In this document: in pieces, positions 14,453 through 50,728 of the stretch
How the letters are laid out: the number at the start of each line of letters is the position of its first letter
Position numbering within the stretch: position 1 is the first letter of the stretch
NCBI GenBank assembly: GCA_964466295.1
Contig: CAYXRC010000001.1
Location: 146,640 to 210,639 of the forward strand
Length of the DNA: 64,000 nucleotides
Reading direction: 5' to 3'
Origin: an uncultured Ruminococcus sp.
GTDB taxonomy: Bacteria; Bacillota; Clostridia; CAKSNL01; HGM11501
Position numbers and translations under genes: made by a program
Notes under the pieces: generated by a model
What the model saw: the letters and a program-made list of their open reading frames with translations, nothing else
Told to the model about the DNA's origin: nothing
Database searches by the model: none

Positions 14453-14736
14453 TCAAAGTATTATGCAAATAAGACCGCCGGAGCCTTCGTTTATAATGCG
14501 CTCCAAGGTAGTTCTTATTTTATCCCTTGCGTCGTCGGGCATTCTTGAAAGCTTGTTGTTAAGCTCCTCGTTTACAAGCTCGTGGAGAGATTTGCCGAAA
14601 AGATTGGACTCCCAAAGCTTCTGAGGGTCGGACTCAAACTCCTCTAAAAGATAGTGAACAAGCTCTTCCGATTCACGCTCGGTGCCGACTATTGGCGCCA
14701 CCTGGGTTTCAATATCCGCTCTCATCATATGTATTG
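14453..14736 (-). CDS. spoIVA: stage IV sporulation protein A, C-terminal segment (3' part of the split spoIVA gene)
   Basis: ...VAPIVGTERESEELVHYLLEEFESDPQKLWESNLFGKSL...RTTLERIINEGSGGLICIIL is collinear with the last ~90 residues of B. subtilis SpoIVA (...APIIGTEKQSEELVRYLMQDFEDDP...ERIINEGSGGLIAIIL). Confidence 0.85.
14727..14736. repeat. left copy of the 10-bp direct repeat atatgtattg (putative recombination core, attL side of the spoIVA intervening element)
   Basis: The identical 10-mer occurs at 49527..49536, exactly where homology to SpoIVA breaks in each gene fragment. Confidence 0.7.
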
Positions 14737-14860
14737 TCCGCTACAAACTGAGGTTCTTAATCGGTATTCATTGTATGATGTGTATTTTACCGTATTTTTC
14801 AACAAATTGCAAGGCTTTTCTTCATTCGATAAAATTGTGGCAATACACAGAATGATGGAA

Positions 14861-14912
14861 AGCAAAAAAATAAAGCGGTATAGAGAATGTGTAAATCAGC
14901 ATTCTCTATACC
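14861..14912 (-). terminator. Rho-independent terminator of the recombinase gene (minus strand)
   Basis: Inverted repeat ggtatagagaatg/cattctctatacc followed on the minus strand by a T-run. Confidence 0.55.
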
Positions 14913-14920
14913 ATTAATAA

Positions 14921-16636
14921 TTATTCCAAGCGATAACATAATTCATAATTGAAAGTCAAATCATATGTTTTCAACGACCTTGTATTACCACCTCTGGTTT
15001 GTACTATCTGTCCAGAACCAAAAGTTAAAATGTGAGAGTCCTCGGTAAAGTTCTGTGGAGTGTTAGGGAGAAGTTTCAAAAAGATTTTTAAGTCAATCTG
15101 ATTTTCTGCTTCACTTTTATATACCACAATCTTATCAATAAAACTGTCAACAACATTTTTGCCAAGTTCTTCTGTGAAATTAAGTTCATTTGCAATAGAT
15201 GAGCGAAGACCTTCAATAGATTCCTTTAAATCAAGGCTTTTTTGCTCCTCTTCGTCAAGTTCAGATAGTCTTGCTCTTAGGTCACTAATCTGAGCATTAA
15301 AACCATTATTTCTCTGCTCAAACTCTTCATTGGATAGTCTGCCATCCATAGCCAAATCAAGCAACTTGTCCTTCTTGTCAAGAAGCGTATTTATATCTGT
15401 TTGGATTTTGCACTTTGACTTAGCAATCGCCTTAGTGCTCCCACTTTCTTTGTAAAGCTCTATAAGTTCGTTTATAATAGTATTTTTTTCGCAGATAATC
15501 TGATTATAGACCTCTTTCATAACGGCATCAATCTCAGTTGTATATACAAGCGGATTTCTGCATTTGTTCCCATTGCCGTACTCCTTGCAAGTCCATAGCT
15601 CTTTATCACCCGATTTGTATTTGTATATAGTGTGATGATAACAAGTGCCATGCTCTCCACAGACAATCTTTCCCGAATATAAGTATTTGTTCTGATAACT
15701 TGTCTTATCGCTACTCGACATCTTTTCACTTCGCTCTTTTAGTTTGCGATTAGCCTTGTCCCAAAGCTCAGCAGATACAATTGGCGGGACTTTTTCGTGG
15801 TCTTTATACACAACCCATTCATCTTTCGGTACATACGCTATTTCATTACTTAAAAAATGGACCTTGTGTGTCTTGTTTCCGCAGTAGAACCCTTTATATT
15901 TAGGATTAACTAAAATTCCTTTAATAGTAGAAAAGGAAAACGGATTACCATTAGTGTTACGAAGACCGGATTCACTTAATATCTTAGCGATTGCCCTGAC
16001 TCCTAAATTCTCATTGGCATACAAATCAAAGATTTTTCTGACCATTTCAGCCTCTTCTTCAACAATAACCAGTTTGCCTTTTTCCTTTCTGTATCCCCAG
16101 ATGCTGTCATTACCAAGGACAGTACCTTTTTCAACAGATTGCCTGAAACCAAATTTCAATCTTTCTGATGTTTTTCGTGATTCTTCCTGCGCTAAGCTCG
16201 CCATAGTAGTAAGTCTGAAATCACAATCTTCATCAATGGTGTTAAGATTATCATTTTCAAACAGAACTGCAACGCCGTATGTTAAGAGTTCTCTTGTACA
16301 GCTTAAACTATCAAGAGTATTTCTTGCAAATCTTGAAACCTCTTTTGTACATATCATATCAAACTTGCCGCGCTTTGCATCTCGCATCATCTCAATAAAG
16401 CTGTCTCTTTTATCAATCTTTGTTCCAGTTAAGCCCTCATCCACATATCCCTTTACAAATGTCCAGTTCGGGTTTCTTGCTAAAAGGTTTTCAAAGTATG
16501 TTTTTTGCGCCTCAAGAGAATGTAATTGGTCGTACTTGTCCGTTGATACTCTGGCATAATATACAACCCGTAAATTATAGTCGGATATTCTTGTGTGTCG
16601 TGCCCTCATATCTTGTCGTATTTCGTAAATATTCAC
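14921..16636 (-). CDS. large serine recombinase (SpoIVCA/TnpX-like: resolvase domain, recombinase domain and zinc ribbon)
   Basis: N-terminal VVYYARVSTDKYDQLHSLEAQ resolvase catalytic region with the Ser nucleophile. The protein is 571 aa and has a Cys-rich segment (CGEHGTCYHH...WTCKEYGNGNKC). It lies ~190 bp from the element end. Confidence 0.9.
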   Translation of the reverse strand: MNIYEIRQDMRARHTRISDYNLRVVYYARVSTDKYDQLHSLEAQKTYFENLLARNPNWTFVKGYVDEGLTGTKIDKRDSFIEMMRDAKRGKFDMICTKEVSRFARNTLDSLSCTRELLTYGVAVLFENDNLNTIDEDCDFRLTTMASLAQEESRKTSERLKFGFRQSVEKGTVLGNDSIWGYRKEKGKLVIVEEEAEMVRKIFDLYANENLGVRAIAKILSESGLRNTNGNPFSFSTIKGILVNPKYKGFYCGNKTHKVHFLSNEIAYVPKDEWVVYKDHEKVPPIVSAELWDKANRKLKERSEKMSSSDKTSYQNKYLYSGKIVCGEHGTCYHHTIYKYKSGDKELWTCKEYGNGNKCRNPLVYTTEIDAVMKEVYNQIICEKNTIINELIELYKESGSTKAIAKSKCKIQTDINTLLDKKDKLLDLAMDGRLSNEEFEQRNNGFNAQISDLRARLSELDEEEQKSLDLKESIEGLRSSIANELNFTEELGKNVVDSFIDKIVVYKSEAENQIDLKIFLKLLPNTPQNFTEDSHILTFGSGQIVQTRGGNTRSLKTYDLTFNYELCYRLE

Positions 16637-16723
16637 TTTGCTTACCTCCTGTCTTATGTTAAAAATTTCTATCTATATGAAGGAAGTGTGCCGCAATAAA
16701 GCAGCACACTTCCGATTGCATTA

Positions 16724-16891
16724 TCAGCTTGCCTGCTTGAGCAAAAGTTCTTTTGCAGACCAGTACATATCCTCTGAAATTATATGCTTGTCAAATAACT
16801 TCTGGTTTATGAACATCTTTAATTCGTTGTTGAATTGTTCCCTGTTCTTCTTTAATGTATCGTTTGCTTTAACTGTTTTTGTCATAAGCAT
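16724..16891 (-). CDS. small (55 aa) helical protein immediately upstream of the recombinase; candidate recombination directionality factor
   Basis: Hand-translated ORF MLMTKTVKANDTLKKNREQFNNELKMFINQKLFDKHIISEDMYWSAKELLLKQAS. RBS aaggacggg precedes it and a hairpin follows. It is absent from the ORF track because it is shorter than 60 aa. Confidence 0.3.
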   Translation of the reverse strand: MLMTKTVKANDTLKKNREQFNNELKMFINQKLFDKHIISEDMYWSAKELLLKQAS

Positions 16892-16988
16892 CCCGTCCTT
16901 TCTAAATTAAATTTATTTGTAATTATGTATTTGTACATAAATATGTAATTACCTTGATGAATATGCTTGTACAAATCCATTTTTAAGA

Positions 16989-17435: not shown

Positions 17436-17490
17436 TATATCTGTGTGAATGTGCGCTCAAATGGCACATTCTACTCCTTTCATTCTAAAT

Positions 17491-18186
17491 TTAATTTTGG
17501 CGGCATTTACAGCTGCCGCCAAACTGTTTAATTTGCTGTGGATATAAAGGTGGTCCGCGAAGGAAGGTACAAACTGAATCCGCAACTTCTTCTATTTCTG
17601 CATCATCTTCTTCTGCTGCAACATCTTCATGCATACGGCTGGGAATATAATGCTTCCCAGCGTTGTTATGGGCAAGATGACAATACATATTGTCTCTCGG
17701 CAAGAAGTTCCAGCAGAAATATGCTGTATTAAAACTGGAAGTCCTTCCATTGAAACTAACTTTTTTGTCCGGTGTCAGCTTCTGAATATGAATACCCTTT
17801 TGGCTGAGTTCCCAGAAATAGTTTCCTATTATCTGATACTGCTCACAAGTGCTGTTCATAAGTATTGCAAAGGGTTTATGTAGACTTACCAGCCTTTTGA
17901 ATACATCAAGTTTTAATGAAAAAGGCGGATTTGTTATGATGCAGTCGTAATGTTCATCCGGTTCATAGGTAAAAAAATCTTTTCCTTCCCAGATATGCGA
18001 ATGAATCACATTTATATCGTGCTCTCTTAAAGTGAGAACAAATTCGCTTGATTTGGTATCACAAGGACACCACACAGTGCTTCCTTTCGGAATATACTGA
18101 ACAATTGGCTCTACAAGGATTTTGGGAGTGTACATCTCATCATTGCCGGAGCTGTACATTCCTTTAAGATTATTATTCATGCACAA
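17491..18186 (-). CDS. orphan N6-adenine DNA methyltransferase (NPPF motif)
   Basis: CIITNPPFS motif IV. The protein is 231 aa and overlaps the next methyltransferase gene. Confidence 0.65.
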   Translation of the reverse strand: MCMNNNLKGMYSSGNDEMYTPKILVEPIVQYIPKGSTVWCPCDTKSSEFVLTLREHDINVIHSHIWEGKDFFTYEPDEHYDCIITNPPFSLKLDVFKRLVSLHKPFAILMNSTCEQYQIIGNYFWELSQKGIHIQKLTPDKKVSFNGRTSSFNTAYFCWNFLPRDNMYCHLAHNNAGKHYIPSRMHEDVAAEEDDAEIEEVADSVCTFLRGPPLYPQQIKQFGGSCKCRQN

Positions 18187-19427
18187 GCACCTCTTTCTTC
18201 AAAGGCGTTGGCTTTATCAATAACCTTTTTTATGGCGCGTTCAAATGCTCCGATTCCTGTAAAAGTTGAGAGCAAGCGCACTTTTTCAAACAGATATGGC
18301 ATACTAATAAACAATTCAACGATTATAGCATAGAGAACATCAACTACAATTGAGTTTCCAGCCTGTTTGTAAATCTGAGAATCGCTCACAACCGCAGAAG
18401 CAGCCTTATAATCTTCTTCTGTAAATCCGGTCATTCTTAATGCCTCAGAAGCGCTTAACTTCTTAATAAGATAACGCTCCTGATCGTCTATCTGTGTTTT
18501 TTGCAAAACTATTGTTGAATGATTACTCGCTGTTAATGTCGGTGTACATTTAATACCAACAACATTATCCTGAAATGCCGAAGGACATTCCATACGAAAG
18601 ATGTTTTTATCGCTATTTACAATAAGCTCTTTGTCGCGAATTATGTTTCTCTTTACAGAATTCATAATCTTATCATGAATAACAATTCTTTCGTCTGTCC
18701 CTTCAAAAAAAGGCTTAGGATCGTCGAGTATATCATTAAATGTTTTCCCGCCCTCAATTGGTTCGGGAAACTTAAAGCGAAGGTTGTCAAGGTCTTTCCT
18801 GATAGCGAGCACATATACACGCTCGCGATTTTGTGGTATGCCGTAGTTCTTGGCATTAAGCACCTTGTAATATACGTTATAACCGTATTCTTCAATCTCC
18901 GCGATAAACAAGTCAAATACTTCTTTAAAACGATTACTTGTAAGGTTTTTAACATTCTCATACAACGCCACTTTTGGTCTTGTGGCATATAGAATTTTTA
19001 GCCAGTGAACCAATAGTGAAGAACGAGTCTTTTCAAGATTTCTTGAACTACAATTCGGACAGCGGTCTCGTCTTGTATGATGCACTGTCAAAGGATTATA
19101 TTCAGCCCCACATGACAGACATTTGAACATACTGCCACGCTTGTTTCCGCTGATTGAGAAATCCTGACAGGGGCTTCCCCCTACGAGGAAGTTGATGTAT
19201 GGTAATGTTAATAGGTCTATTTTTGTAATATCCCACAGATTTTTTAGTGGGCTTATGCTATGTATCGCACAAAATGCCGCTGCTGCGAACTTATCTATTT
19301 CGCAAAAACGGACTAATTCATATAAAAATTTCATGTTTTTACCTCCTAAAATTAAATTAGAAGGTAAGGCCTTACCATCAAGAGGGTGATCAAATCCTCT
19401 TGCTCTGTATTTATATATAAAAATCAA
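18177..19427 (-). CDS. DNA cytosine-5 methyltransferase
   Basis: GGSPCQDFS (PCQ motif IV) and YENVKNL (ENV motif VI). Confidence 0.85.
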   Translation of the reverse strand: MIFIYKYRARGFDHPLDGKALPSNLILGGKNMKFLYELVRFCEIDKFAAAAFCAIHSISPLKNLWDITKIDLLTLPYINFLVGGSPCQDFSISGNKRGSMFKCLSCGAEYNPLTVHHTRRDRCPNCSSRNLEKTRSSLLVHWLKILYATRPKVALYENVKNLTSNRFKEVFDLFIAEIEEYGYNVYYKVLNAKNYGIPQNRERVYVLAIRKDLDNLRFKFPEPIEGGKTFNDILDDPKPFFEGTDERIVIHDKIMNSVKRNIIRDKELIVNSDKNIFRMECPSAFQDNVVGIKCTPTLTASNHSTIVLQKTQIDDQERYLIKKLSASEALRMTGFTEEDYKAASAVVSDSQIYKQAGNSIVVDVLYAIIVELFISMPYLFEKVRLLSTFTGIGAFERAIKKVIDKANAFEERGACA

Positions 19428-19516
19428 CCGAGGTAGCTAATCCCGATTGATTCATCATGATGGGTTAAAATACTGCTATTGAGAGGTTGTCCCATCGAAC
19501 TTCAATAACATCTTAC

Positions 19517-21088
19517 TTATGCAGCAACGACTTCAAGTTCATTATCGCTATCAATTTCAATGTCTTCAACATTTATAGTCGTACTTTCGAATGGTTCTTC
19601 GCCTTCAAATACAACAACTTCAGATTGTTCTTTCTGTTCGCGAAGACAAATAGCATCAATAACATCTGAACAACAAGCATATTTACCCTCGTCCGGTTCA
19701 TATGCGACAAAATGACGACCTTCCTTTGCACAGACATCAATAGCTGTACCATAACCGCCATAAACAAATACGGTATCACCAGGAAGAGAGGAATTAACAA
19801 TCAAGTGTCTCATAAATTCCGGAGACATCTTATCCTGATATAGAAGCGTCAAATCACGCTCATCCTCAAAATACTTAATCTTCGTATGACTATCGCCATA
19901 TATTTTAACTCCGCCCTTACGTAAGAAAAGCACAAATTGTGTTTTTTCGCCTTGATAAAGGGCAAGGATGTCAAATTTATAGTCCTGTTTTTTAAAATAC
20001 ATTAGCACCTCTGGAAACTGAATCATATCAAGCATTATATAAAGGTTAGGTTTTGGCTGTTTTGCGATAATTGCTTCCATAAAATCATAGTCGATATCAA
20101 GCCCTTGACCTGTAATATCAAAGTAGGACATCTTGATGCTGCCATTTTCCGTAGAGTTCAATAACTGAGCTTCATCTTGATACAAAGTATCCGCTGTATC
20201 TTCAAGAATTGTGGATGTTAAGTTGTAATCAGGACATTCAAGCAATGCAAGTTCGATTCTTCTGTTACTTACCTCGTAATACTTTTCCAACAATTCAAAT
20301 CCGATAAACTTTCTGTTAGACCTTATTGCCGCCTCAAAAGTTGTTCCGGAGCCTGCGAAAGGATCGCAGATAATTTGTCCCTCATCCGTAATTGCTTCAA
20401 TAAGTGCTTGTAATTGAGGAACAAACTTTGTTGTAGGATGATATAATTCATCATTTTTACTTACTTTCACTACCGGAGTAGTAAAGTGGTCAGTTTCGAG
20501 ATGAATTTCATCCGTAACCTCTTTTGCATAAGCCAATACAATGTACTCCATACTATTGACGACATATGTATTGGAACAGAATTTAGGACAGCAATTGCTT
20601 TTACTCCAGGTTAGAAGCTGAAACTCCATACCTTTTTCTGTGAAATATTCAATATACATTGGAATCTGTTCCTTATTACAATAGAAGATGCCCTTGAATC
20701 TGTCTTTGCCCATAACCCTTATGCATTCGTCTAAAATGCAAATGTCAAATCCATGACTTATAAATTTGATTTCAGACACATAGGCTGTATCTGTTGCTGC
20801 ACCGGCAGGTTTATCTGTTATCTTCTGGACATATGGTGGGTCAGAAATGATAGCACCATCTACGGAACCGTCTTTCATTCTTCTAAGACCGATTAAGCAA
20901 TCCATGTTATATACTCTGCCGGTCGCTATAACCTCCATCAAGTCCTGTGCTTCTCTCCAAAGTCTGTACGCCTCAATTACATTTAAATTTTTAGTTTCAT
21001 TTACATTTTTCATTTTAATCAATCCTTTCATATTTAATATAGTAAATTTGGTTTCATAAACAAAGGCTGCGGTTTTACCTTTCCGCAC
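19517..21088 (-). CDS. beta-class DNA methyltransferase (N4-C or N6-A), phage-type orphan
   Basis: DGAIISDPPY precedes CDPFAGSGTT, which is the beta-class motif order. The protein is 523 aa. Confidence 0.75.
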   Translation of the reverse strand: MRKGKTAAFVYETKFTILNMKGLIKMKNVNETKNLNVIEAYRLWREAQDLMEVIATGRVYNMDCLIGLRRMKDGSVDGAIISDPPYVQKITDKPAGAATDTAYVSEIKFISHGFDICILDECIRVMGKDRFKGIFYCNKEQIPMYIEYFTEKGMEFQLLTWSKSNCCPKFCSNTYVVNSMEYIVLAYAKEVTDEIHLETDHFTTPVVKVSKNDELYHPTTKFVPQLQALIEAITDEGQIICDPFAGSGTTFEAAIRSNRKFIGFELLEKYYEVSNRRIELALLECPDYNLTSTILEDTADTLYQDEAQLLNSTENGSIKMSYFDITGQGLDIDYDFMEAIIAKQPKPNLYIMLDMIQFPEVLMYFKKQDYKFDILALYQGEKTQFVLFLRKGGVKIYGDSHTKIKYFEDERDLTLLYQDKMSPEFMRHLIVNSSLPGDTVFVYGGYGTAIDVCAKEGRHFVAYEPDEGKYACCSDVIDAICLREQKEQSEVVVFEGEEPFESTTINVEDIEIDSDNELEVVAA

Positions 21089-29561: not shown

Positions 29562-29582
29562 TATAATAAGCCCTTTCTATGT

Positions 29583-29981: not shown

Positions 29982-30004
29982 TTCTCTCCTTTAAATTCTT
30001 TAAT

Positions 30005-34308: not shown

Positions 34309-34327
34309 TTGATTGGAGATAACATAT

Positions 34328-35386: not shown

Positions 35387-35389
35387 ATA

Positions 35390-36469: not shown

Positions 36470-36493
36470 TATATACAAGGTTGGTGAGATGTT

Positions 36494-37435
36494 ATGCCTA
36501 ATATATGTAGCTTGTTTGCCGGTATAGGAGGCATTGACCTTGGTTTTATACAAGCAGGGTTTGATGTTGCATGGGCTAACGAAATGGATGATGCCGCTTG
36601 TAAAACATATAGACATAATTTTAAAGATACAAATCTGGTTCAAGATAATATTAAGAATATTTCTGCGGATAGTATTCCTGATTTTGATGTTTTGACAGCT
36701 GGATTTCCATGCCAACCATTTTCAATAGCAGGTCTCCAAAAGGGGTTTAAAGACAGAGATGGTAATTTGTTTTTTGAAATAACCCGTATTATTGATGCTA
36801 AAAGACCTAAAATCGTTTTCTTGGAGAATGTCCCGAATCTCATTGAACATGACAATGGAAAAACATTTTTGGTTATTTTCAATTCACTTGCCCAATTCGG
36901 TTATACAGTTTACTATCGTGTTTTGGCATCAAATGATTATGGAAATCTACCACAGATAAGAAAACGTATTTACATAGTGGCAGTAAGAGAAGATTTGACT
37001 GATAAAATATATAGGTATCCCGACCCAATAGAACTTACAAAGATGTCGAGTGACATTATCAAGCGGGATACAAAGCAACATGAGATTTATTATTATACGG
37101 AAGATAGAATGTATAAGTATTTACGATCGCACATGAATGATAAAATGGCAATATATCGTATTACTGATAATGAAGTACGATGGACGAAAAATAGAATGTG
37201 TCCAACACTGACAGCTAATATGGGGACTCGCAAAGATCGCGTCCACGTAGTATGGGATGATTTTGGAATTCGTAAATTAACACTCAGGGAATGTCTTGAT
37301 TTTCAAGGATTCCCTCAGGATTATTATTTTCCGAATACCATTACGATAGATGATGCATATAAGCAAATAGGAAACACTGTTTCTGTTCCTGTAATTAAAA
37401 GATTGGCAGAGACGATAAAAACATTAGTTGAATAA
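36494..37435 (+). CDS. DNA cytosine-5 methyltransferase (R-M methylase 2)
   Basis: FAGIGGIDLGF (motif I), GFPCQPFS (motif IV) and LENVPNL (motif VI). Confidence 0.9.
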   Translation: MPNICSLFAGIGGIDLGFIQAGFDVAWANEMDDAACKTYRHNFKDTNLVQDNIKNISADSIPDFDVLTAGFPCQPFSIAGLQKGFKDRDGNLFFEITRIIDAKRPKIVFLENVPNLIEHDNGKTFLVIFNSLAQFGYTVYYRVLASNDYGNLPQIRKRIYIVAVREDLTDKIYRYPDPIELTKMSSDIIKRDTKQHEIYYYTEDRMYKYLRSHMNDKMAIYRITDNEVRWTKNRMCPTLTANMGTRKDRVHVVWDDFGIRKLTLRECLDFQGFPQDYYFPNTITIDDAYKQIGNTVSVPVIKRLAETIKTLVE

Positions 37436-39484: not shown

Positions 39485-39485
39485 T

Positions 39486-41243: not shown

Positions 41244-41334
41244 AATCATAGTTTTATTTAAGAGCAATGGTTTTATATAATTTTTGTTTAAATATATGTT
41301 TATTGTAATGAATGAAGTAATAGGAGGAATAACC

Positions 41335-41685
41335 ATGATAAAATTTATTTGTTACCCCAAATGTACAACTTGTCAAAAAGCGAAGAGATGGCTTAATGAC
41401 AACAAAATTGAATATAATTTTCGTGATATAAAAGAAAATAATCCGAGTATTGAAGAATTAACAGCTTGGTACAAAATGAGTGGTTTGCCATTAAAGAAAT
41501 TCTTTAACACATCGGGACTTTTATACAAGTCGATGGAACTCAAAACAAAGATTCCAACAATGTCGGAAGACGAACAGTTAGAGCTTCTTGCAACAGATGG
41601 CATGCTTGTGAAACGACCTCTTATGATTGGTGATGGTTTTGTCTTAGTAGGATTTAAGGAAAGTGAATGGAGCGAGAAATTATAA
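41335..41685 (+). CDS. ArsC/Spx/YffB-family thioredoxin-fold protein
   Basis: MIKFICYPKCTTCQKAKRWL has a CxxC near the N-terminus. About 116 aa. RBS aggagga. Confidence 0.65.
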   Translation: MIKFICYPKCTTCQKAKRWLNDNKIEYNFRDIKENNPSIEELTAWYKMSGLPLKKFFNTSGLLYKSMELKTKIPTMSEDEQLELLATDGMLVKRPLMIGDGFVLVGFKESEWSEKL

Positions 41686-41700
41686 TTTAGAGGTGATTCT

Positions 41701-42723
41701 ATGCCATTACAAATCATAAGACAAGATATAACCAAAATGAAGGTCGATGCCATTGTTAACACAACCAACGAAGAAATGATTGGTTATAGTGGTGTTGATC
41801 TTGCTGTGCATGAAGGTGCAGGGGCGGAACTAGACAAAGAATGTGCTAAAATCGCACCTCTTGGACTTGGAACGGCAAAAATAACAAGTGGATATAATCT
41901 TGATGCGAAATATATTATACATACGTCAGGGCCTATTTGGCGTGGCGGATTAGTTGGTGAAAGCATAATTCTGAAATCTTGTTATTTAGAATCTTTGAAA
42001 CTCGCTGTTGAATATGGTTGTGCTTCGGTCGCTTTTCCTCTTATTTCGTCGGGCGTATATGGTTATCCCAAAGACCAGGTGCTTAAATTTGCTGTTCAGG
42101 TTATAACAGAATTCTTGTTTGAACATGAATTGATGGTTTATCTGTGCGTTTTTGACAGAACATCTTATGAATTCAGTCAAAAACTTTTTGCGGAAATAAA
42201 TGAATTTATTAATGATGAATATGTTGATAGCGACTGTGATGGAAGTATCGACGAAATTCAGACGATAAAAAATTTCTGTGTAATTGAAGACTGCATGGAA
42301 GCACCAAAGAAGTCTGCTCCAATTCCATCAGCCTATGGAAGTGCAAAAAATAAATCTTTGCATGAGTATATGAAATCAATGGACAAGTCTTTTGCTTATA
42401 AACTTTTTGACTTAATTGATGAGCGTGGTATGACAGATGTTGAATGTTATAAAAAGGCGAATGTTGACAAAAAGACTTTTTCAAAGATTAAGTGTAATCC
42501 TGATACATACAGACCGTCAAAGCAGACTGCAGTTGCGTTCGCAATAGCGTTGAAATTAAATCTTGACGAAACACAAGAACTCCTTGCATCTGCCGGATTA
42601 ACGTTATCAAGAAGCTTTACATTTGATAAAATCATCAGATACTTTATTCAAAAAGAGATTTATGATATTTTCGAAATAAACGAGGCACTTTTTGAATTTG
42701 ACCAAGTGCTTTTGGGCTGTTAA
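41701..42723 (+). CDS. macro-domain (ADP-ribose binding/hydrolase) protein fused to a C-terminal XRE-type HTH
   Basis: The N-terminal KVDAIVNTTNEEMIGYSGVDLAVHEGAG...HTSGPIW is a macro-domain signature. The C-terminal ...MTDVECYKKANVDKKTFSKIKC...TAVAFAIALKLNLDETQEL is HTH_3-like. Confidence 0.7.
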   Translation: MPLQIIRQDITKMKVDAIVNTTNEEMIGYSGVDLAVHEGAGAELDKECAKIAPLGLGTAKITSGYNLDAKYIIHTSGPIWRGGLVGESIILKSCYLESLKLAVEYGCASVAFPLISSGVYGYPKDQVLKFAVQVITEFLFEHELMVYLCVFDRTSYEFSQKLFAEINEFINDEYVDSDCDGSIDEIQTIKNFCVIEDCMEAPKKSAPIPSAYGSAKNKSLHEYMKSMDKSFAYKLFDLIDERGMTDVECYKKANVDKKTFSKIKCNPDTYRPSKQTAVAFAIALKLNLDETQELLASAGLTLSRSFTFDKIIRYFIQKEIYDIFEINEALFEFDQVLLGC

Positions 42724-42830
42724 TTTAAAAGTCCCCCGTCAAGCGACCAATTGAATATCAAAACAAAGTATAATGTGATTGTAAGGTTGAAAAACCTACG
42801 CAATCACATTATTTTTTGGAGGTATTTAAG

Positions 42831-43499
42831 ATGAGTGAAAAGATTAAAAACGGAATTACAGAATTGGTATTTATTTTGGACAGAAGTGGTTCAATGTCAG
42901 GGCTTGAAAGTGATACTATCGGCGGATTTAATGCAATGATTGAAAAACAGAAAAAGCAAGATGGTGAATGTTATGTATCTACCGTGTTGTTTGACAATGT
43001 ATCTGAGGTATTACACGACAGAGTCAAGCTCTCAGACATAAAACCTATGACTGACAGAGATTATACGGTCAGAGGCTGCACGGCGTTGATTGATGCTCTT
43101 GGTGGAGCAATTCATCACATTGGAAACATTCATAAGTATGCTCGCAATGAAGATGTTCCAGAACACACAGTATTTGTAATCACAACTGACGGGATGGAAA
43201 ATGCAAGTCGTAAATACAGCAGTGATAGAGTAAAAGCGATGATTGAGAGACAGAAAGAAAAATACGGATGGGAATTCTTGTTCATTGGTGCAAATATTGA
43301 TGCAGTAGAAACTGCTGCACAATATGGAATAAGCAAAGATAGAGCTGTGAATTATGTTCCCGACCCAACGGGTACGCACATCTTATATGAATCTGTGTCA
43401 GCGGTTGTTGGTAATGTTCGTGCAAATAAGTGCGTTGATAAGGATTGGAGCGAGGAACTCAACAAAGATTATATACGCAGAGTTAAGAATAGCAGATAA
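42831..43499 (+). CDS. von Willebrand factor A (vWA) domain protein
   Basis: ELVFILDRSGSMSG (MIDAS DxSxS) ... TDG. Confidence 0.7.
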   Translation: MSEKIKNGITELVFILDRSGSMSGLESDTIGGFNAMIEKQKKQDGECYVSTVLFDNVSEVLHDRVKLSDIKPMTDRDYTVRGCTALIDALGGAIHHIGNIHKYARNEDVPEHTVFVITTDGMENASRKYSSDRVKAMIERQKEKYGWEFLFIGANIDAVETAAQYGISKDRAVNYVPDPTGTHILYESVSAVVGNVRANKCVDKDWSEELNKDYIRRVKNSR

Positions 43500-43723
43500 T
43501 TGAGGATACACGAGCCATTTATTTGCCTTTTGTGGCCATCATCAGTCTTCGGAAGGTAATTTGACCTTGAATAAAATAAAATGCTATACGGCTCGCTTCA
43601 GGTGCATTTGGGACCGTTTTATAGTTGTGTATCGCTTCGCTATGTCGTAAATAAGCTAAATAACCGTATAAAACCAAAAAGGATCATGGATTAAATTGCT
43701 CCATGGTCCTTTGTTTAAGAGTG

Positions 43724-44761
43724 CTATTTTTCTATTAAATCATATCCGTTCATAATGAACTTTGTAATTTCGTTTGTTTTTACACGCATACCGACAGATT
43801 TAATTACATTCTTAATTAAATCTTCCGAAAGAGTAGGAATGTATTTTTTAAGACTTTCATCATTCTCCATCAATTCATTAAAGAGTTTTATGAGCAAGTC
43901 ATTTTTGCGTGTTATATTTTTCGGATAACCTCTTGATATAAGTGCCATATTGTTATCGAAATTCGGTGCTAAACCTAAAATTTCACCGGTATCGGCATCT
44001 CTTAAAACACCGAAGTTGAAGGTGTGTCTGTCAGGGTTTGCACAGATTGTATCTAAGAACAACATCTTTACATAGTCGCCAGCTGCATCCGGACAAATCA
44101 TTTTAAGCATTTCAACGGATTTGATGTAGTATTCATCATCGCCCAGGATGTTAAAAGCAGGTTCAAAATTTACAAGGGCATTATCGGTGAAATCTTTTGT
44201 TTTAATAACACCGTTGCCACGTTCATATTCTGCCATTTTGAAACCAAGTTCAACACCAAGTCTGTATATAAACAATTCAGAAAACATTTCATCATGGTTA
44301 GCCTTTTTATATAGCCACCACTGACCTTTTTTCAGTTTCCAACATTTTTCAAAACTACCGATAGTGGTAAGTTCGGGAGTTTTTGAAATTTTGCTGTTGG
44401 CAACCCTGTTAAAGCTGTCATAGTTTCCTGTAAGAGCGAGATTTGAGCAATAGTCATTATCGAATCTGACATCTGCATAAGTTAAATCTGCATTTATGGG
44501 TTTTATCCAATAATTGTCCGTAATTGTTGAGGCGTTGACCGACAATACGGTTGAAATATCATCTTTTGCTGTCATGCGAAGTGCCTTTTTGAGTAGCCGT
44601 GAGTTTGGTCTTTTACTATCTATTGCTCTGTTTTTTATCCACTTGAAAACATCATGCGAATATCGGAAATACAATGGCAATAAATCTTCGTTTATAATTT
44701 CAAGATTGTTGTCCTGCCACTTTACAACTGCAACATCTTTTGACATTATATAAAAATTCAT
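43724..44761 (-). CDS. divergent HipA-like / PI-kinase-fold kinase domain protein
   Basis: ICANPDRHTFNFGVL (catalytic-loop-like D.H..N) and LGLAPNFD (HipA LxPxYD-like). Confidence 0.35.
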   Translation of the reverse strand: MNFYIMSKDVAVVKWQDNNLEIINEDLLPLYFRYSHDVFKWIKNRAIDSKRPNSRLLKKALRMTAKDDISTVLSVNASTITDNYWIKPINADLTYADVRFDNDYCSNLALTGNYDSFNRVANSKISKTPELTTIGSFEKCWKLKKGQWWLYKKANHDEMFSELFIYRLGVELGFKMAEYERGNGVIKTKDFTDNALVNFEPAFNILGDDEYYIKSVEMLKMICPDAAGDYVKMLFLDTICANPDRHTFNFGVLRDADTGEILGLAPNFDNNMALISRGYPKNITRKNDLLIKLFNELMENDESLKKYIPTLSEDLIKNVIKSVGMRVKTNEITKFIMNGYDLIEK

Positions 44762-44925
44762 AGCAGTTCACCACCTTGTGTATGAGTTTGGATTTATTAT
44801 ATCGCATTTCTTTTGATATTTCAACGATTCTGAAAAAATATAATGAAATTTTCGTAAATAATGTTTATTATAATTGACAAAATCAAAATTTTAGTATATA
44901 ATAATAAACATTAGGAGGCGTTTTC

Positions 44926-45246
44926 ATGGCTAAAAAGACCGTTGATATATTACCTGCTACGCAGGACATACTAAGTAGCATGGGTGAGCAGATAAAACTT
45001 GCAAGACTCAGAAGAAATCTTTCTGTGGACCTTGTGGCTGAAAGAGCAGATATAAGTCGTGCAACCTTATGGAAAGTGGAAAAAGGCGATAAAACCGTTG
45101 CTATTGGAATATATGCCGCAGTGCTTCATGCATTGAATGGTATGGATAAAGATTTATTGCTTGTTGCAAAAGATGACACATTAGGAAGAACCATTCAGGA
45201 TTTGAATTTGACAGTACGCAAACGTGCGCCCCGAAAGGAGGACTAA
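44926..45246 (+). CDS. hipB: HipB-like XRE-family antitoxin
   Basis: HTH_3 (LARLRRNLSVDLVAERADISRATLWKVEKG). Its stop lies 1 nt before the hipA start. Confidence 0.6.
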   Translation: MAKKTVDILPATQDILSSMGEQIKLARLRRNLSVDLVAERADISRATLWKVEKGDKTVAIGIYAAVLHALNGMDKDLLLVAKDDTLGRTIQDLNLTVRKRAPRKED

Positions 45247-45247
45247 T

Positions 45248-46504
45248 ATGGCACTCAATCAAAAAACAATTTATGTTTATGAAAGCTTTAATTCGGATGA
45301 ATCAAATTTGATGGGCAGATTGTATGTCGGCGAAGGAAAAGGTTCTGATAACTTTTCTTTCGAGTTTGATGAAGCGTGGCTTGTTCAACACGATAGAAGT
45401 CACATAATAGACCCTGAGTTGCAGTTATATCCTGGCAGACAATACCCTGTGAATAAAAGTATTTTTGGAATATTTGCAGATTCATCCCCTGACCGTTGGG
45501 GACGTGTTTTGATGCAACGCCGTGAGAGAATTCATGCAGATAAAGAAGGTCGAAAACCAAGAAAATTAACTGATGGAGATTATCTGCTTGGTGTATATGA
45601 TGAGACACGAATGGGTGCAATCCGCTTTAAGGAAGACGAGAACGGACCGTTCTTGTCTGATGATAAAGAAACCGCAGCTCCCCCTTGGGCAACACTCAGA
45701 ACACTTGAAGAAGCATCAAGAAATTTTGAAAATGAAGAAAATCTGCTTAATGAAAAATGGTTGAATCAATTGTTGAAGCCAGGTTCTTCGCTTGGTGGTG
45801 CAAGACCAAAAGCAACAATTCAAGACACTAATGATGAACTTTGGATTGCAAAGTTCCCATCAAAGAATGATGAGTTCAATACAGGTGCTTGGGAAAAGGT
45901 TGCTCACGATTTGGCAAAGTTATGTTCTCTTAATGTTCCTGAATCAAAACTTGAAACTTTCTCTAAATTGGGTAGCACATTTATAGTAAAACGCTTTGAT
46001 CGTAATGGAGATAAACGAATACATTTTGCATCTGCTATGACGATGCTCGGCAAAACAGACGGTGCTTCATCGTCGGACGGTTCAAGCTATCTTGATATTG
46101 CCGGATTTATCAAAGCAAGCTGTGTATCACCTAAGAAAAGTTTAAAGGAACTTTGGATGCGTATTGTGTTCAGTATGGCTATTTCTAACACTGATGACCA
46201 TTTGAGAAACCACGGATTTATTTTAACAAAAAGTGGTTGGGAGCTTTCACCTTTATACGATGTTAACCCGACACCATACGGTGATGAATTGGCATTGAAT
46301 GTAAATACCGAGGATAATTCTATTTCAATTGACCTTGCAATAGAATCGGCACATCATTTTGGGCTGTCAGTTGATGAAGCGGCTGAACTTGCAAACAACA
46401 TAACAACAACAGTCAGAGACAATTGGGAAAAACTTGCAACAAAGTATGGTCTCAGCCGTGGTGCTATTGAATATATGAGACCTGCATTTAGTGCGTGTTA
46501 TTGA
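45248..46504 (+). CDS. hipA: HipA-family Ser/Thr kinase toxin
   Basis: GSSLGGARPKATI (P-loop-like), ISNTDDHLRNHGFIL (catalytic loop), LSPLYDVNP. RBS aaaggagg. Confidence 0.85.
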   Translation: MALNQKTIYVYESFNSDESNLMGRLYVGEGKGSDNFSFEFDEAWLVQHDRSHIIDPELQLYPGRQYPVNKSIFGIFADSSPDRWGRVLMQRRERIHADKEGRKPRKLTDGDYLLGVYDETRMGAIRFKEDENGPFLSDDKETAAPPWATLRTLEEASRNFENEENLLNEKWLNQLLKPGSSLGGARPKATIQDTNDELWIAKFPSKNDEFNTGAWEKVAHDLAKLCSLNVPESKLETFSKLGSTFIVKRFDRNGDKRIHFASAMTMLGKTDGASSSDGSSYLDIAGFIKASCVSPKKSLKELWMRIVFSMAISNTDDHLRNHGFILTKSGWELSPLYDVNPTPYGDELALNVNTEDNSISIDLAIESAHHFGLSVDEAAELANNITTTVRDNWEKLATKYGLSRGAIEYMRPAFSACY

Positions 46505-46523
46505 TTTTTAGGAGGTAGTTATT

Positions 46524-47096
46524 ATGCGAAAAAACTTTGGAGCGAAAGCGATTTTATATCCGATGCCGGTGTTGATTATCGGCACATATGACGAGGATGG
46601 GAAACCTAATGCGATGAATGCCGCTTGGGGTGGGATAAGTGAGGAAACACAGATTTCTATTTGTGTAGATGACGGACACAAGACTGCAAAGAATATGGTT
46701 AAAACAGGTGCATTCACAGTAAGCATAGCAGATGCGGAAAATGTTGTTGCCTGTGATTATGTGGGCATTGCTTCAGGGAATAAAGAGCCTGATAAAATAG
46801 AAAAAGCAGGTTGGCATGCTACAAAGAGTGAATTTGTAGATGCTCCCCTCTTTGATGAACTGCCTATGGCACTTGAATGTAAACTAATCAGCTATGACGA
46901 AGAAACTTGCAGACTTGTGGGCGAAATCGTAAATGTATGTGCTGATGAAAGAATTCTTGATGACAATGGTAAAATTGATTTGAATAAATTCAGTCCTATT
47001 ACCTACGATCCGGTACATCATACTTATCGTAAACTTGGTGATATTGTTGGTAAGGCATTTAGTGATGGGAAATTGCTTAAGAAATGTGTAAATTAA
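46524..47096 (+). CDS. flavin reductase-like (FMN-binding split-barrel) protein
   Basis: ILYPMPVLIIGTYDEDGKPNAMNAAWGG is typical of the Flavin_Reduct family. Confidence 0.7.
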   Translation: MRKNFGAKAILYPMPVLIIGTYDEDGKPNAMNAAWGGISEETQISICVDDGHKTAKNMVKTGAFTVSIADAENVVACDYVGIASGNKEPDKIEKAGWHATKSEFVDAPLFDELPMALECKLISYDEETCRLVGEIVNVCADERILDDNGKIDLNKFSPITYDPVHHTYRKLGDIVGKAFSDGKLLKKCVN

Positions 47097-47240
47097 CATA
47101 AAATTCGAGAATAATGATGAACATATAGTGTTTTAAAGTAAATAACATTCTTATATCCGAATATATATTTATTAAAATGGTAAAAACTATAAAAAATATA
47201 TTCGGGAGATGATACAATGTTTTATATTGGAGGTACAAAT

Positions 47241-48551
47241 ATGAAATTAACAAAAATTTCTGTAGACAATCTACATAACGTATTTGATTATACGGTAAAT
47301 TTTAATGAAGATATTACCTTTGTTTATGGTGAAAATGGTTGTGGAAAAACAACTTTATTAAATATTATTACATCAATAATATCGGGCGAAATATATCATT
47401 TATTTGAACTTGAATTCAAATCAATAGTTTTAGAATTCGTAGAGGAATTACAAGTTGATAAAATTATAATAAAGTATATTGATAATGTTATTCATATCAA
47501 CTTTGAAGAAGAAGAATATATATTAGAACGTATTTCGATAGATGAATCAAGAAGAGAAAGAATATTTGATTATTATTGTGATAAATATGAATTTCTTCGC
47601 AATATACAAAAAAGATTTGTGTCTGTGTATTTACCACTAAATAGAAAGAATAGTACCAATGAATTGAATTATAGGTATGATCGTTTTTACCGTAGAAGTT
47701 ATATTGAGGATAATAGTTTTTTTGTTGACAATCAGTATGATCGTTTTTTGGACGACGTGTTAGAAATTATCAGAAATAAGTATACTGAAATATCGGGAAG
47801 AATAAATAGAATTGATGAAAACTTCAAGACTAAAGTTATTAATTCTGTATTCAAACTGACAAAAAATAACGATGAAGATAAAGATGAAATCCTAAAATGG
47901 ATAACTAATCCCAAATATATAAGTAGTTTGGATAAAATAAAAGAAGATTATCTTTATGCGTGTGATAATTATTCTAATATTGGTTTAGATGATAAGTCAA
48001 AAATTGACACTTTTTTTGATTCGTTTAAAGAAGATTTGGAGAAATTTTCTAATAGTGAAGGCGAAAATCGTTCAATGTCATTAGATTTGGTTTTTAAATT
48101 TAAAGACCTATCTAAAATCAACAAAATTATAGAATTTGTTCAAGAACGAGAAGAGAATATTTCTAAAACAAAAGAACCGATAAATAAGTATCTTAACATA
48201 GTAAATAGTTTTATCAGTACGAAAGAAAATGGTAAAAAGATAAAAATTAATCCACGTGGTGAAATTTATCTTGAACAAAAAAAGAAGTCAATCAATGTTA
48301 AGAATTTGTCATCGGGTGAAAAGCAAATTATAACATTTTTCGCTTACATTATATTTTCACTATACGGAAAATCAGGTATTTTCGTTGCTGATGAACCTGA
48401 ATTATCATTGCATTTGAATTGGCAAAGAAAATTTGTTGAATCAATCACAACTGCGAACCCTAATTTGCAGATAATATTTGCAACTCATGCACCTGAAATA
48501 ATTGGCAGGTTTAGAAATAAGGCAGTAAAGTTAGAACCAAATGCAAGATAG
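47241..48551 (+). CDS. PARIS AriA-like ABC-type ATPase (AAA_15/AAA_21)
   Basis: Walker A FVYGENGCGKTTLLN near the N-terminus. C-terminal signature/Walker B LSSGEKQ...IFVADEPELSLH and H-loop FATHAPE. Confidence 0.5.
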   Translation: MKLTKISVDNLHNVFDYTVNFNEDITFVYGENGCGKTTLLNIITSIISGEIYHLFELEFKSIVLEFVEELQVDKIIIKYIDNVIHINFEEEEYILERISIDESRRERIFDYYCDKYEFLRNIQKRFVSVYLPLNRKNSTNELNYRYDRFYRRSYIEDNSFFVDNQYDRFLDDVLEIIRNKYTEISGRINRIDENFKTKVINSVFKLTKNNDEDKDEILKWITNPKYISSLDKIKEDYLYACDNYSNIGLDDKSKIDTFFDSFKEDLEKFSNSEGENRSMSLDLVFKFKDLSKINKIIEFVQEREENISKTKEPINKYLNIVNSFISTKENGKKIKINPRGEIYLEQKKKSINVKNLSSGEKQIITFFAYIIFSLYGKSGIFVADEPELSLHLNWQRKFVESITTANPNLQIIFATHAPEIIGRFRNKAVKLEPNAR

Positions 48552-48563
48552 GAGCAAATAACG

Positions 48564-49433
48564 ATGACCATAGTACAAGATGAAATACCCGCATTTGGCG
48601 GTGATGGAAATTTAGCAAAAAGTTTGCTTTGTAGTTCATCAAATGGAGTAAATTTCTTTGTTGAAGATACAAATAGAGAATTTGAATATGAAATCATATT
48701 TGAAAGACTTTTAGGGAAAGACATAAAAATAAATAGCGTTGTAGCTTGTGATGGTAAAGAAGGTGTTAAAAATAGTATAGCAGAATTTAGTACAGAAGAA
48801 TACCAAACAACAAACGGAATATGCATTTTTGTTGTAGATGGAGATTTTGACAATTTTTTTGAAACAAAACAGTCCTTAGACAATTTATTATATTTAAAAT
48901 ACTACAATATTGAATGTTACTTTATTGAGGAAGAATCCACAAAATATTATTTAAGAAAAAAACTTAAAAAAACTATGTCTGAAATTGATCCAATGATTGA
49001 TTTTGATAAATGGTATAATAATTTTGTGATAGATTTTAAAAAACTTTTTGCATTATATCTATTAGTAAAAGAAAATGCTCCTGATATCCCTAATGTGGGT
49101 ACGGGACCACATCGGTATTTAAATTCGGACGGACGTATTATAACTACTGAATACAATATGTATTACAACACCGTTAAGCATTTAGATACTGGAAATTCCT
49201 TAAATAATATGATTACTAGGATTGATGATTTTTGTAATAGTGATTATAAGAAAGTCATATGTGGCAAATACATGCTAGAAAGCTTACGAAGATACTTGGT
49301 TACAAAAACTAATGTGCAAATTGGCTATGATAAATTTAGAGAATGTTTGTTGGAAGTTTTTGATATTCAAAAGCTGAATTACATAAAAGAAGAGATATTT
49401 CACTATAGGAATAAGTTCTACTCGATAACTTGA
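48564..49433 (+). CDS. PARIS AriB-like DUF4435 / TOPRIM-OLD nuclease
   Basis: FFVEDTNREFEYEI (Toprim Glu) and FVVDGDFD (DxD). 289 aa. It lies 12 bp after the ATPase gene. Confidence 0.45.
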   Translation: MTIVQDEIPAFGGDGNLAKSLLCSSSNGVNFFVEDTNREFEYEIIFERLLGKDIKINSVVACDGKEGVKNSIAEFSTEEYQTTNGICIFVVDGDFDNFFETKQSLDNLLYLKYYNIECYFIEEESTKYYLRKKLKKTMSEIDPMIDFDKWYNNFVIDFKKLFALYLLVKENAPDIPNVGTGPHRYLNSDGRIITTEYNMYYNTVKHLDTGNSLNNMITRIDDFCNSDYKKVICGKYMLESLRRYLVTKTNVQIGYDKFRECLLEVFDIQKLNYIKEEIFHYRNKFYSIT

Positions 49434-49489
49434 TAGATGTACCACAAAAAGCACAGACCAAAACAGTCTGTGCTTTAACTTTGCCCATT

Positions 49490-50728
49490 TTATGCGGCTT
49501 CCAAAGACTTGGGTTTGTTACACATTATATGTATTGACGGAGCGCTGGCACGCAGGCGCACTCCGTAGCGTCCGCCCTGGCGTATTATTTCCGGCTCCTC
49601 AAGGCGAAGCTCGTCAATTCCGGGATTTACTATTCCGTAGCCGGTTTCCCGTACCTGATGAAGAGCGTATTTTATGCGGCTGTATTCCTTTTCCATGGCG
49701 GAGAGCTTTATCAAAAGCCGCATAAGCTTTTCCTCGCTGTCGACCTCAAAACCGGTGGTTTCCTTTATAATGGAGTAAAAAAGTCCGTCTGCAACAGTGA
49801 TACCGGCAGTAACCGAGCCTTTGCCAAGATCTACCTTTTCCACTGCGGCTCCGGATACATAATCCTCTTTTGCAAAAGCGTCCGTAAGATAATGTATCTG
49901 ACTTATGCGGTTGATTTTATAAACGGTTTCACGGATTTTTGAGTATACCTTGCTTTTAAGATAGTGGTCGGGAGAGAGCGCTTCAATCCAGCCGGGAATG
50001 TTTATGCCGATTTCAGTAACGGGGAACTCGTAAAGCACAGACTCTAAAACAGAGGCTATGTCCGACTCGTTAAGCTCGGCGCAGTTTATGCGCTTTACGG
50101 ACACGTCGTATTTCGACGAAATTTCCTCCGCCGCCGCTTTGGCAGCAGGTGATTCGGGCGCACTGGAATTTAAAAGCACGATAAACGGCTTTCCGATTGC
50201 CTTAAGCTCGTTTATGACTCTGCCCTCTGCGTCCCTGTAATCCTCCCTTGCTATATCCGTGATACTGCCGTCGGTGGTAATAACAAGACCTATGGTAGAG
50301 TGCTCGTTTATAACCTTTTTGGTGCCTGCCTCTGCCGCATCCTCAAAGGGCATGGCTTCGTCCGACCACGGAGTTTTGACCATTCTGGGAGCGTCGTCCT
50401 CAAACTGACCGATGGCACCGGGCACTATGTAGCCTACGCAGTCGATAAGTCTTACATTTAAAAAGGACTTGTTTTGGTCAAAAGAAATTTTTACGGCTTC
50501 ATTAGGTATAAACTTGGGCTCAGTAGTCATGATGGTACGTCCCGAGGCGCTTTGGGGCATTTCGTCCGCCGCACGTTCTCTTTTATAGGGATTGTCAATT
50601 TTGGGTAGCACGAAATACTCCATAAATTTTTTTATAAACGTAGACTTTCCCGTTCTTACGGGACCGACTACGCCGATGTAGATGTCGCCCTGTGTTCTTA
50701 AGGCAATATCCGAATAAATGTTATCCAT
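49490..50728 (-). CDS. spoIVA: stage IV sporulation protein A, N-terminal ~400-aa segment (5' part of the split spoIVA gene; present ORF ends in an element-encoded tail CNKPKSLEAA*)
   Basis: MDNIYSDIALRTQGDIYIGVVGPVRTGKSTFIKKFME is collinear with B. subtilis SpoIVA (MEKVDIFKDIAERTGGDIYLGVVGAVRTGKSTFIKKFME) through ...GVRLRASAPSIHIM and then diverges. Confidence 0.85.
   Translation of the reverse strand: MDNIYSDIALRTQGDIYIGVVGPVRTGKSTFIKKFMEYFVLPKIDNPYKRERAADEMPQSASGRTIMTTEPKFIPNEAVKISFDQNKSFLNVRLIDCVGYIVPGAIGQFEDDAPRMVKTPWSDEAMPFEDAAEAGTKKVINEHSTIGLVITTDGSITDIAREDYRDAEGRVINELKAIGKPFIVLLNSSAPESPAAKAAAEEISSKYDVSVKRINCAELNESDIASVLESVLYEFPVTEIGINIPGWIEALSPDHYLKSKVYSKIRETVYKINRISQIHYLTDAFAKEDYVSGAAVEKVDLGKGSVTAGITVADGLFYSIIKETTGFEVDSEEKLMRLLIKLSAMEKEYSRIKYALHQVRETGYGIVNPGIDELRLEEPEIIRQGGRYGVRLRASAPSIHIMCNKPKSLEAA
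49527..49536. repeat. right copy of the 10-bp direct repeat atatgtattg (attR side of the spoIVA intervening element)
   Basis: Identical to 14727..14736. It sits in the ...SIHIM codons of the spoIVA 5' segment. Confidence 0.7.

Follow-up and report, generated by a model that had tools for sequence, protein, structure and literature searches.

A defence island inserted into spoIVA by a large serine recombinase in an uncultured gut member of the Clostridia, and its putative sigma-E-controlled excision

We analyzed a 64-kb window of what appears to be a metagenome-assembled genome (MAG) from an uncultured gut member of the Clostridia (contig CAYXRC010000001.1), in which the sporulation gene spoIVA is split by a 34,800-bp element that carries its own large serine recombinase (LSR). 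Positions below are those of the window, which is the whole stretch of DNA that was analyzed. The arrangement of the element and of its relatives suggests that the LSR, together with a small partner protein, probably excises the element in the mother cell under sigma-E control, so that spoIVA would be restored in the terminal cell only. Related contigs or loci are designated by L-numbers and related proteins by P-numbers.

The split spoIVA gene and its empty site

It had been proposed in a preliminary description of this DNA that two minus-strand open reading frames (ORFs), about 35 kb apart, are parts of the same spoIVA gene, and both parts were found where that description had placed them. 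The 5′ segment, from Met1 to His400 (49527..50728, minus strand), was recognized by profile matches and by tblastn over residues 1-402, and the 3′ segment, from Met401 to Leu491 and the stop codon, encodes the SpoIVA_C domain (14453..14728, minus strand). The 10-bp direct repeat ATATGTATTG is likewise present in two copies, one at the junction of the spoIVA 5′ segment with the element (49527..49536, attL in gene orientation) and the other at the junction of the element with the 3′ segment (14727..14736, attR in gene orientation). When position 14736 is joined to position 49537, an ORF of 491 codons is restored in frame as had been predicted, reading ...ASAPSIHMMRADIETQVAPIVGTE... across the junction. 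The joined protein aligns with SpoIVA in one uninterrupted stretch, covering positions 5-492 of the 492 in the NCBIfam equivalog profile TIGR02836 (stage IV sporulation protein A) with a score of 716 bits against a cutoff of 459.9. It also matches the Pfam domains SpoIVA_ATPase, SpoIVA_middle and SpoIVA_C, all three in order. Neither fragment is full length by itself when judged by TIGR02836 membership. The intervening element, including one copy of the core repeat, extends from 14737 to 49536 with genes on both strands, and its GC content of 34.3%, compared with 42.7% and 40.6% in the flanks, bears out the statement that it is more AT-rich than its surroundings.

In the integrated state, the 5′ ORF runs 12 element-encoded codons (IMCNKPKSLEAA) beyond the junction to a stop at 49490 and has no SpoIVA_C domain. 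SpoIVA of Bacillus subtilis needs its C-terminal region for localization, and the truncated SpoIVA, from which this region is missing, is therefore probably inactive. No stop codon or frameshift is found in either spoIVA fragment in any of the split alleles examined. The proportion of nonsynonymous differences (pN) in the split fragments ranges from 0.04 to 0.21, far below that of synonymous differences (pS), for which the sites are saturated, and this also holds between two split alleles. Such conservation of the fragments fits a continued function of spoIVA.

A protein search with the joined sequence retrieved an intact natural SpoIVA of 491 amino acids (P0241) that is 100% identical over its full length. 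In the three contigs that encode it (L062-L064), the element is absent and spoIVA is uninterrupted, and the gene order, with a branched-chain amino-acid ATP-binding cassette (ABC) transporter followed by spoIVA, ispE and htpG, is the same as that in the window. L062 and the in-silico joined window share 98.6% nucleotide identity over 10.4 kb; their alignment passes through the join without a gap, and the two have an identical junction sequence, CGTCAATACATATGATGAGAG (attB). Uninterrupted relatives thus carry exactly the junction and the protein that had been predicted from the split copy, which means that in some conspecific strains the site is unoccupied. Four other assemblies from this species also contain the exact 91-residue C-terminal fragment, and each of them has an element at the same position; such an exact look-up detects split alleles only and is uninformative on their frequency within the species. 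We further noticed that, in a MAG that is a GTDB species representative (GCA_964542085.1; L013 and L061), the spoIVA fragments lie on two separate contigs that both end at most ~240 bp from an element boundary, and automated annotation would call spoIVA truncated or missing there.

A family of elements at one spoIVA codon

Relatives of the LSR are numerous in metagenomes and MAGs, with more than 100 cluster representatives showing 69-95% identity. Wherever the flanking sequence sufficed (P0002, P0084, P0120, P0079 and L029), the LSR gene was found to adjoin a SpoIVA_C fragment, and in P0023 the LSR element is flanked by the N-terminal side of spoIVA. The break is located at SpoIVA residues 398-402 (His400|Met401) in at least nine host contexts, which differ in their neighbouring genes and whose SpoIVA proteins are 54-81% identical to that of the window. 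The LSR protein P0002 is identical in two host contexts (L001 and L002), which indicates recent horizontal transfer. Among the best 120 clusters (90% identity) matching the 91-residue C-terminal fragment, 99 are split alleles, of which 62 have exactly 91 amino acids and 37 start in the translated element arm (...IKDLGLLPIIHM...); the other 21 are pieces of intact genes cut by contig ends. In the viral contigs of IMG/VR, an alignment-based scan returned only LSR relatives of at most 51% identity, none of them adjoining spoIVA, and a single-sequence scan with the LSR gave no match. An exact look-up of the LSR protein also gave no match, for which a different start-codon call is perhaps responsible, and a scan of metagenomes for related loci yielded eight, several of them too short for an attachment (att) site. 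Taken as a whole, the element belongs to a widespread spoIVA-targeting family of uncultured gut and rumen Clostridia, and a split of this type is present in hundreds of related bacteria.

At the insertion site, the intact relative L010 reads ...GCGCTCCGTCGATACATATGATGCGCGCGGA.... Both element ends are conserved, the LSR-proximal one as ...ATTAAGAACCTCAGTTTGTAGCGGACAATACAT and the far one as ATATAATGTGTAACAAACCCAAGTCTTTGGAAGCCGCATAAAATGGGCA.... The attP site reconstructed for the window has the junction GGACAATACATATAATGTGTA, and the reconstructed attP sites of the window and of L008 share an imperfect inverted repeat, GTTTGY...RCAAAC, whose arms, with ATAC|ATAT at their centre, are separated by 24 nt. 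On the basis of this arm symmetry, the crossover dinucleotide is predicted to be the non-palindromic CA within the His400 codon. Another right-arm type, TTAAAKACTTGGGTTTGCTACYTATC, is found in L002, L004, L026 and L058. In L026, a contig of 395 kb, two elements are arranged in tandem and meet in a natural attP-like junction (14430-14520) composed of the right arm, ATACATATGATG and the left arm; the LSR gene of the upstream copy (8001-9716) has an in-frame stop near 8823. In L002, an extra segment of 2.8 kb (12883-15686) separates the spoIVA 3′ fragment from a complete right end of the element. It encodes an HTH protein, a HipA protein and a protein of 379 amino acids, terminates with another right arm that differs from the first, and represents an element, nested or remnant, that has no LSR of its own. 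The arrangements in L026 and L002 mean that tandem or nested elements accumulate at the spoIVA site.

The LSR gene (14921..16636, minus strand) lies 184 bp inside the left end of the element, close to the ~190 bp of the preliminary description. Its product of 571 amino acids has the Resolvase, Recombinase and Zn_ribbon_recom domains of Pfam that place it in the LSR class, and its catalytic, nucleophilic Ser31 lies in an ARVST motif that is invariant among the LSR relatives. It matches the phrog_95 integrase family (E = 1e-113), and the closest solved structures are the catalytic domain of a conjugative-transposon recombinase and the SPbeta integrase YokA/SprA (E = 3e-11). Directly upstream of the LSR gene is a small ORF of 55 codons, or 53 if counted from the third codon (16724..16891, minus strand). 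This small ORF is found upstream of every related LSR with 60-98% identity, and homologs also precede LSRs that are only 41% identical. The small ORF is a candidate for the gene of a recombination directionality factor (RDF).

Two hairpins are found in the element. One, with a 13-bp stem (16682..16713, minus strand; −27.5 kcal/mol, z = −4.75), is located between the small ORF and the LSR gene; it is conserved, with compensatory base changes in the divergent element L004. No T-run lies behind it, hence it is no obvious terminator, and it may set the ratio of the small protein to the LSR. The other, AAAGCACAGAC...GTCTGTGCTTT with a T-run behind it, resembles a terminator and is located just within the element's far end, past the truncated spoIVA ORF (49448..49476, minus strand). 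It is formed by an 11-nt perfect inverted repeat (−22.1 kcal/mol and z = −3.8 on folding) and has equivalents in L008 and L013; a simple terminator scan did not list it. This hairpin would block spoIVA transcription from entering the element.

The sigma-E consensus of B. subtilis is kmATATT-N14-CATACAnT, and the motif upstream of spoIVA in the window, TCATATT-N14-CATACATA (50761..50789, minus strand), fits it. An alternative ATG upstream of the 5′ ORF (ORF 49490..50728), at 50761 on the minus strand, falls inside the −10 element of this motif, so that the true start of spoIVA is at 50728. A motif of the same type, GCATATT-N14-CATATTTA, is located upstream of the small ORF-LSR pair (16938..16966, minus strand). 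The pattern kmATAww-N14-CATA is found 65-84 nt upstream of the small ORF in all of the 12 distinct elements, always with a 14-nt spacer, and it is kept in L004, L051 and L052 although the sequence around it cannot be aligned with that of the window. In 15 of 19 hosts, the same pattern also lies upstream of spoIVA itself, at a distance of 60-76 nt. Its background density is 5.4e-5 per nt, or ~0.0016 per 30-nt window, and it is absent before two distant small-ORF/LSR pairs that are located outside spoIVA. In Clostridioides difficile, spoIVA is a sigma-E target (PMC5025042). We infer that spoIVA is expressed in the mother cell in this host and that the motif upstream of the small ORF may act as a working sigma-E promoter.

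The preliminary description had suggested a search for sporulation promoter motifs upstream of the recombinase at 16640-16720. A sigma-E-type motif does exist upstream of the recombinase, but the likely one is that before the small ORF rather than one in that interval. A sigma-E-like match directly before the LSR gene (16655-16680) was rejected as a promoter, its −10 element overlapping the ribosome-binding site, and the sigma-K pattern AC-N16-17-CATAnnnTA had no match near the LSR gene. Upstream of the small ORF, only weak consensus matches and no conserved sigma-70-type or SOS-type site were identified. Short palindromes, TACATAtttATGTAcaaaTACAT, also lie nested in the conserved block before the small ORF (16920-16950, minus strand) and look similar to the att core ATACAT; they could have arisen by chance in AT-rich DNA, or could be a binding site for the LSR or for a regulator.

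Developmental excision and its alternatives

The insertion, its boundaries, the att anatomy, the exact restoration of the gene, the site specificity and the conserved module and motif can be read directly from the sequences, and from them we infer that the element is excised in the course of sporulation, and in no cell but the mother cell. It would remain integrated in vegetative cells and in the forespore, where a truncated SpoIVA without its C-terminal domain would be encoded and the terminator-like hairpin would halt read-through. In the mother cell, sigma-E would turn on the small ORF-LSR pair, and with the small protein acting as RDF, the LSR would recombine attL with attR at the CA dinucleotide. 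A circle would thus be excised and an intact spoIVA restored in the chromosome of the terminal mother cell only, and the element would be retained in the spore. Because spoIVA is an early sigma-E gene, excision and spoIVA expression would start together, earlier than in any characterized case.

Several points weigh against this proposal. The host is uncultured. The motif pattern was designed after two sites had been seen, and the exact probabilities are therefore optimistic, although the conservation itself is not in doubt. The purifying selection on the spoIVA fragments cannot be dated relative to the insertion by dN/dS, because the synonymous sites are saturated, and a second intact spoIVA may sit elsewhere in the genome, beyond the 64-kb window. 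The small ORF has no detectable similarity to known RDFs in Pfam, PHROG or PDB; such a lack of relatives is usual for the RDFs of serine integrases, among which no fold is common to all (PMC11795197). Control of both the LSR and the RDF by sigma-E only would leave unexplained how the LSR is expressed alone for integration into a new host. Finally, the forespore gene spoVAD is also interrupted in the same genome, and the host may make no viable spores if spoVAD stays unrepaired.

The split spoVAD gene is also among the observations behind a reading of the element as plain insertional inactivation. Here a conserved stretch of spoIVA would be no more than a reliable landing site, in a gene that is dispensable in growth, the carriers would be asporogenous or would sporulate after random loss of the element, and no developmental control would be involved. 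The interruption of spoVAD by another LSR element is in keeping with this, as are the conspecific strains with an empty site, which mean that the element is dispensable, and the finding that conserved coding sequences are commonly targeted by LSRs (PMC10083194). The in-frame stop in one LSR of L026 adds that some copies may be immobile. We nevertheless consider inactivation unlikely. The sigma-E-type motif is present in 12 of 12 elements, even amid sequence that cannot be aligned, and is found at spoIVA as well, and no stop or frameshift has been seen in the split fragments across at least nine contexts and 99 fragment clusters. Moreover, if a core sporulation gene were simply knocked out, as a dead end, so wide a family would not be expected.

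Excision could also respond mainly to signals other than sporulation, such as stress or transfer, in the manner of the stress-inducible sprB promoter of SPbeta, and the repair of spoIVA would then be a by-product, or sporulation one of two triggers. Dual control is known in SPbeta (PMC4191935, PMC6957869), and the identical P0002 in two host contexts implies that elements must sometimes excise outside terminal mother cells, with which the tandem and nested arrays in L026 and L002 agree. Neither the region before the small ORF, with its lack of a conserved sigma-70-type or SOS-type site, nor the gene content of the element, in which conjugation and packaging genes were not found, favors such signals, and we regard this explanation as rather improbable. 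An artefact of assembly or binning that produced a chimeric contig hardly deserves credence; the nearest relatives of the source are all MAGs, but the same junctions recur in many independent assemblies from different projects, and each break coincides with a defined core, next to which the element arms are conserved. The probable explanation remains sigma-E-controlled excision in the mother cell.

Cargo, known intervening elements and a split spoVAD gene

Behind the recombination module, the element carries three DNA methyltransferase genes (N6-type, C5 and N6/N4) with no adjacent nuclease (17491..21088, minus strand), followed on the plus strand by genes for a small resolvase (23867-24466), a primase-like CHC2 protein (25005-26747) and a MazF toxin (26893-27291). 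Two proteins with Cu_amine_oxidN1 domains and a LytTR-type two-component system are encoded at 27828..33134 (minus strand). A type II restriction-modification system, consisting of a C5 methylase, an NgoFVII-family nuclease and another C5 methylase (34313..37435, plus strand), precedes a complete Gabija system (37493..41243, plus strand), in which GajA (ATPase and TOPRIM; 37493-39484) and GajB (UvrD-like helicase; 39486-41243) are adjacent and score 595 and 597 bits, respectively. The remaining stretch, 41284..49433, encodes ArsC/Spx-like, Macro-domain, VWA, HipA-like, and HTH plus HipA proteins, a flavin reductase, and an AriA/AbiL-like ATPase with a partner of 289 amino acids. Pfam and PHROGs revealed no phage genes for structure, packaging or lysis among the element proteins, nor any conjugation genes, and 21 kb of the element, compared by megablast with records of phages and plasmids, had no match. 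The element is a non-phage integrative defence island inserted by LSR site-specific recombination, and not a prophage. Other members of the family carry different cargo. The L051 element, of ~11.8 kb, has metabolic cargo in place of defence genes (region 171-9582), with a sugar ABC transporter and a two-component system, and the L008 element, of ~11.5 kb, has HipA/Fic and AAA_14 genes. In a protein-by-protein comparison, only the LSR and the upstream small ORF are common to all the elements.

The preliminary description had likened the architecture to that of the skin element and its recombinase SpoIVCA. The likeness holds for the split sporulation gene and for the placement of the LSR at the element end that adjoins the 3′ fragment; in lacking phage genes, however, the spoIVA element is closer to gin. 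With a sporulation gene that is split and precisely joined, att sites built of a core and inverted repeats, and an LSR of its own, it has the structural features of a gene-intervening element, and the absence of phage structural, lysis and packaging genes sets it apart from a prophage-like skin. In B. subtilis, skin interrupts sigK, and like the element here, it bears an LSR and splits a sporulation gene of the mother cell. The order in skin is attL-skr-spoIVCA-attR, with a sigma-E promoter upstream of the 64-residue RDF Skr (PMC6957869), and the same order, with the sigma-E-type promoter motif, the small ORF directly before the LSR, and the LSR next to the 3′ gene fragment, is found here. The two differ in that skr overlaps spoIVCA by 101 nt, whereas a conserved hairpin separates the two genes here, and in that skin is a defective prophage, whereas the spoIVA element has no phage genes. 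Different skin elements are reported to have no gene in common except the recombinase (Galperin et al.), which agrees with the finding here that only the LSR and the small ORF are common. The target of skin is a late sigma factor, whereas that of the present element is spoIVA, an early sigma-E-dependent gene for a structural ATPase, because of which excision would be needed at the very start of the mother-cell programme.

The gin element, located in gerE of Bacillus cereus ATCC 10987 and excised by GirC with GirX, is like the spoIVA element in being non-phage, in carrying restriction-modification genes, and in combining a serine recombinase with a small factor (PMC5595907). It has three LSR genes and interrupts gerE, a late sigma-K-dependent gene, whereas the element here has, besides a small resolvase, a single LSR, and its defence cargo is much larger; only a few Bacillus strains are known to carry gin, whereas the spoIVA family spans many uncultured Clostridia. 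SPbeta in spsM (SprA and SprB) and skinCd of C. difficile (CD1231 and CD1234) combine an LSR with a small sporulation-controlled RDF, as is proposed here. In these two, however, the LSR is constitutive and the RDF alone is under sporulation control, whereas both genes here appear to lie behind one sigma-E-type motif, and SPbeta, unlike the spoIVA element, is an active phage. A comparable case is the fdxN element of cyanobacteria, which a serine recombinase (XisF) excises developmentally once the cell has terminally differentiated; it differs in phylum, programme and target. The match of the LSR to the XisF model is weak (91 bits against a cutoff of 375), and it is not a member of that equivalog. 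Targets reported for intervening elements are sigK, spoVFB (vfbin), spoVR (vrin), spsM, gerE, yabG (yin), cotJC and spoIIID, and a full-text literature search, which covered papers outside subscription-only journals, found no report of spoIVA as a target. The element is a structural member of the gene-intervening elements, nearest to the non-phage gin, and is notable for its early structural target, its defence-island cargo and its very wide occurrence in uncultured gut Clostridia.

The second interrupted gene, spoVAD, is a gene of the forespore in B. subtilis as well as in C. difficile. The window holds only the C-terminal third of SpoVAD (58455..58889, minus strand), which covers positions 202-329 of the 329 in the profile and residues 209-337 of an intact relative. 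Upstream of this fragment are AT-rich DNA, a Fic gene and a second LSR gene with a DUF4368 domain (60304..61986, minus strand), preceded by an ORF of 68 codons just upstream (62098-62304, minus strand); this element continues past the window end (64000). An identical spoVAD fragment is present in four other assemblies, the SpoVAD fragment in the IMG/VR contig L069 starts at the same residue next to an LSR of 45% identity, and at least nine representative clusters of 133-141 amino acids start at the same SpoVAD position. By eye, without a pattern scan of the region, no sporulation-type promoter was seen upstream of the second LSR gene. The spoVAD split is either a knock-out or is repaired by a logic other than that of the mother-cell elements. 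Repair of spoVAD as well would require excision in the germline compartment, a logic undescribed for intervening elements, for example with the element excised in the forespore and integrated again when the spore germinates, or with the circle carried in the spore. A broader proposal, which we regard as doubtful, is that the first step of spore-coat assembly in many uncultured gut Clostridia might hinge on the sigma-E-run self-excision of a defence island, with spoVAD in the same genome interrupted, at a site that recurs, by an LSR of another clade.

Elsewhere in the window there is an AT-rich insert of 2.1 kb (~9454-11589, GC about 0.29) with ORFs at 9616-9891, 10023-10769 (minus strand) and 11028-11516. 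It is flanked by 70-nt direct repeats (94% identical; region 9384-11589) that duplicate the 3′ end of a GGGtGRT-family gene, and it is apparently absent from L062, a contig that ends ~40 bp beyond the junction. This insert is probably a small integrative element without a recognizable integrase.

Of the coat-morphogenetic proteins, SpoIVA alone is conserved in every spore-former (Galperin et al.). Its action falls at the onset of the mother-cell programme, and if the proposed excision is true, an early checkpoint would join the sporulation genes that are controlled by rearrangement, and such rearrangements would be common in uncultured gut Clostridia, beyond Bacillus and a few pathogens. A split spoIVA is easily taken for a pseudogene, and calls of "non-sporulating" made from genomes may therefore be wrong. 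The LSR, the predicted att sites and the candidate RDF make up a well-defined new recombination unit, which is a possible tool for genome engineering. Since the cargo is variable, ranging from defence genes to the sugar transporter of L051, vertical transmission in the spore could stably carry accessory genes in these bacteria.

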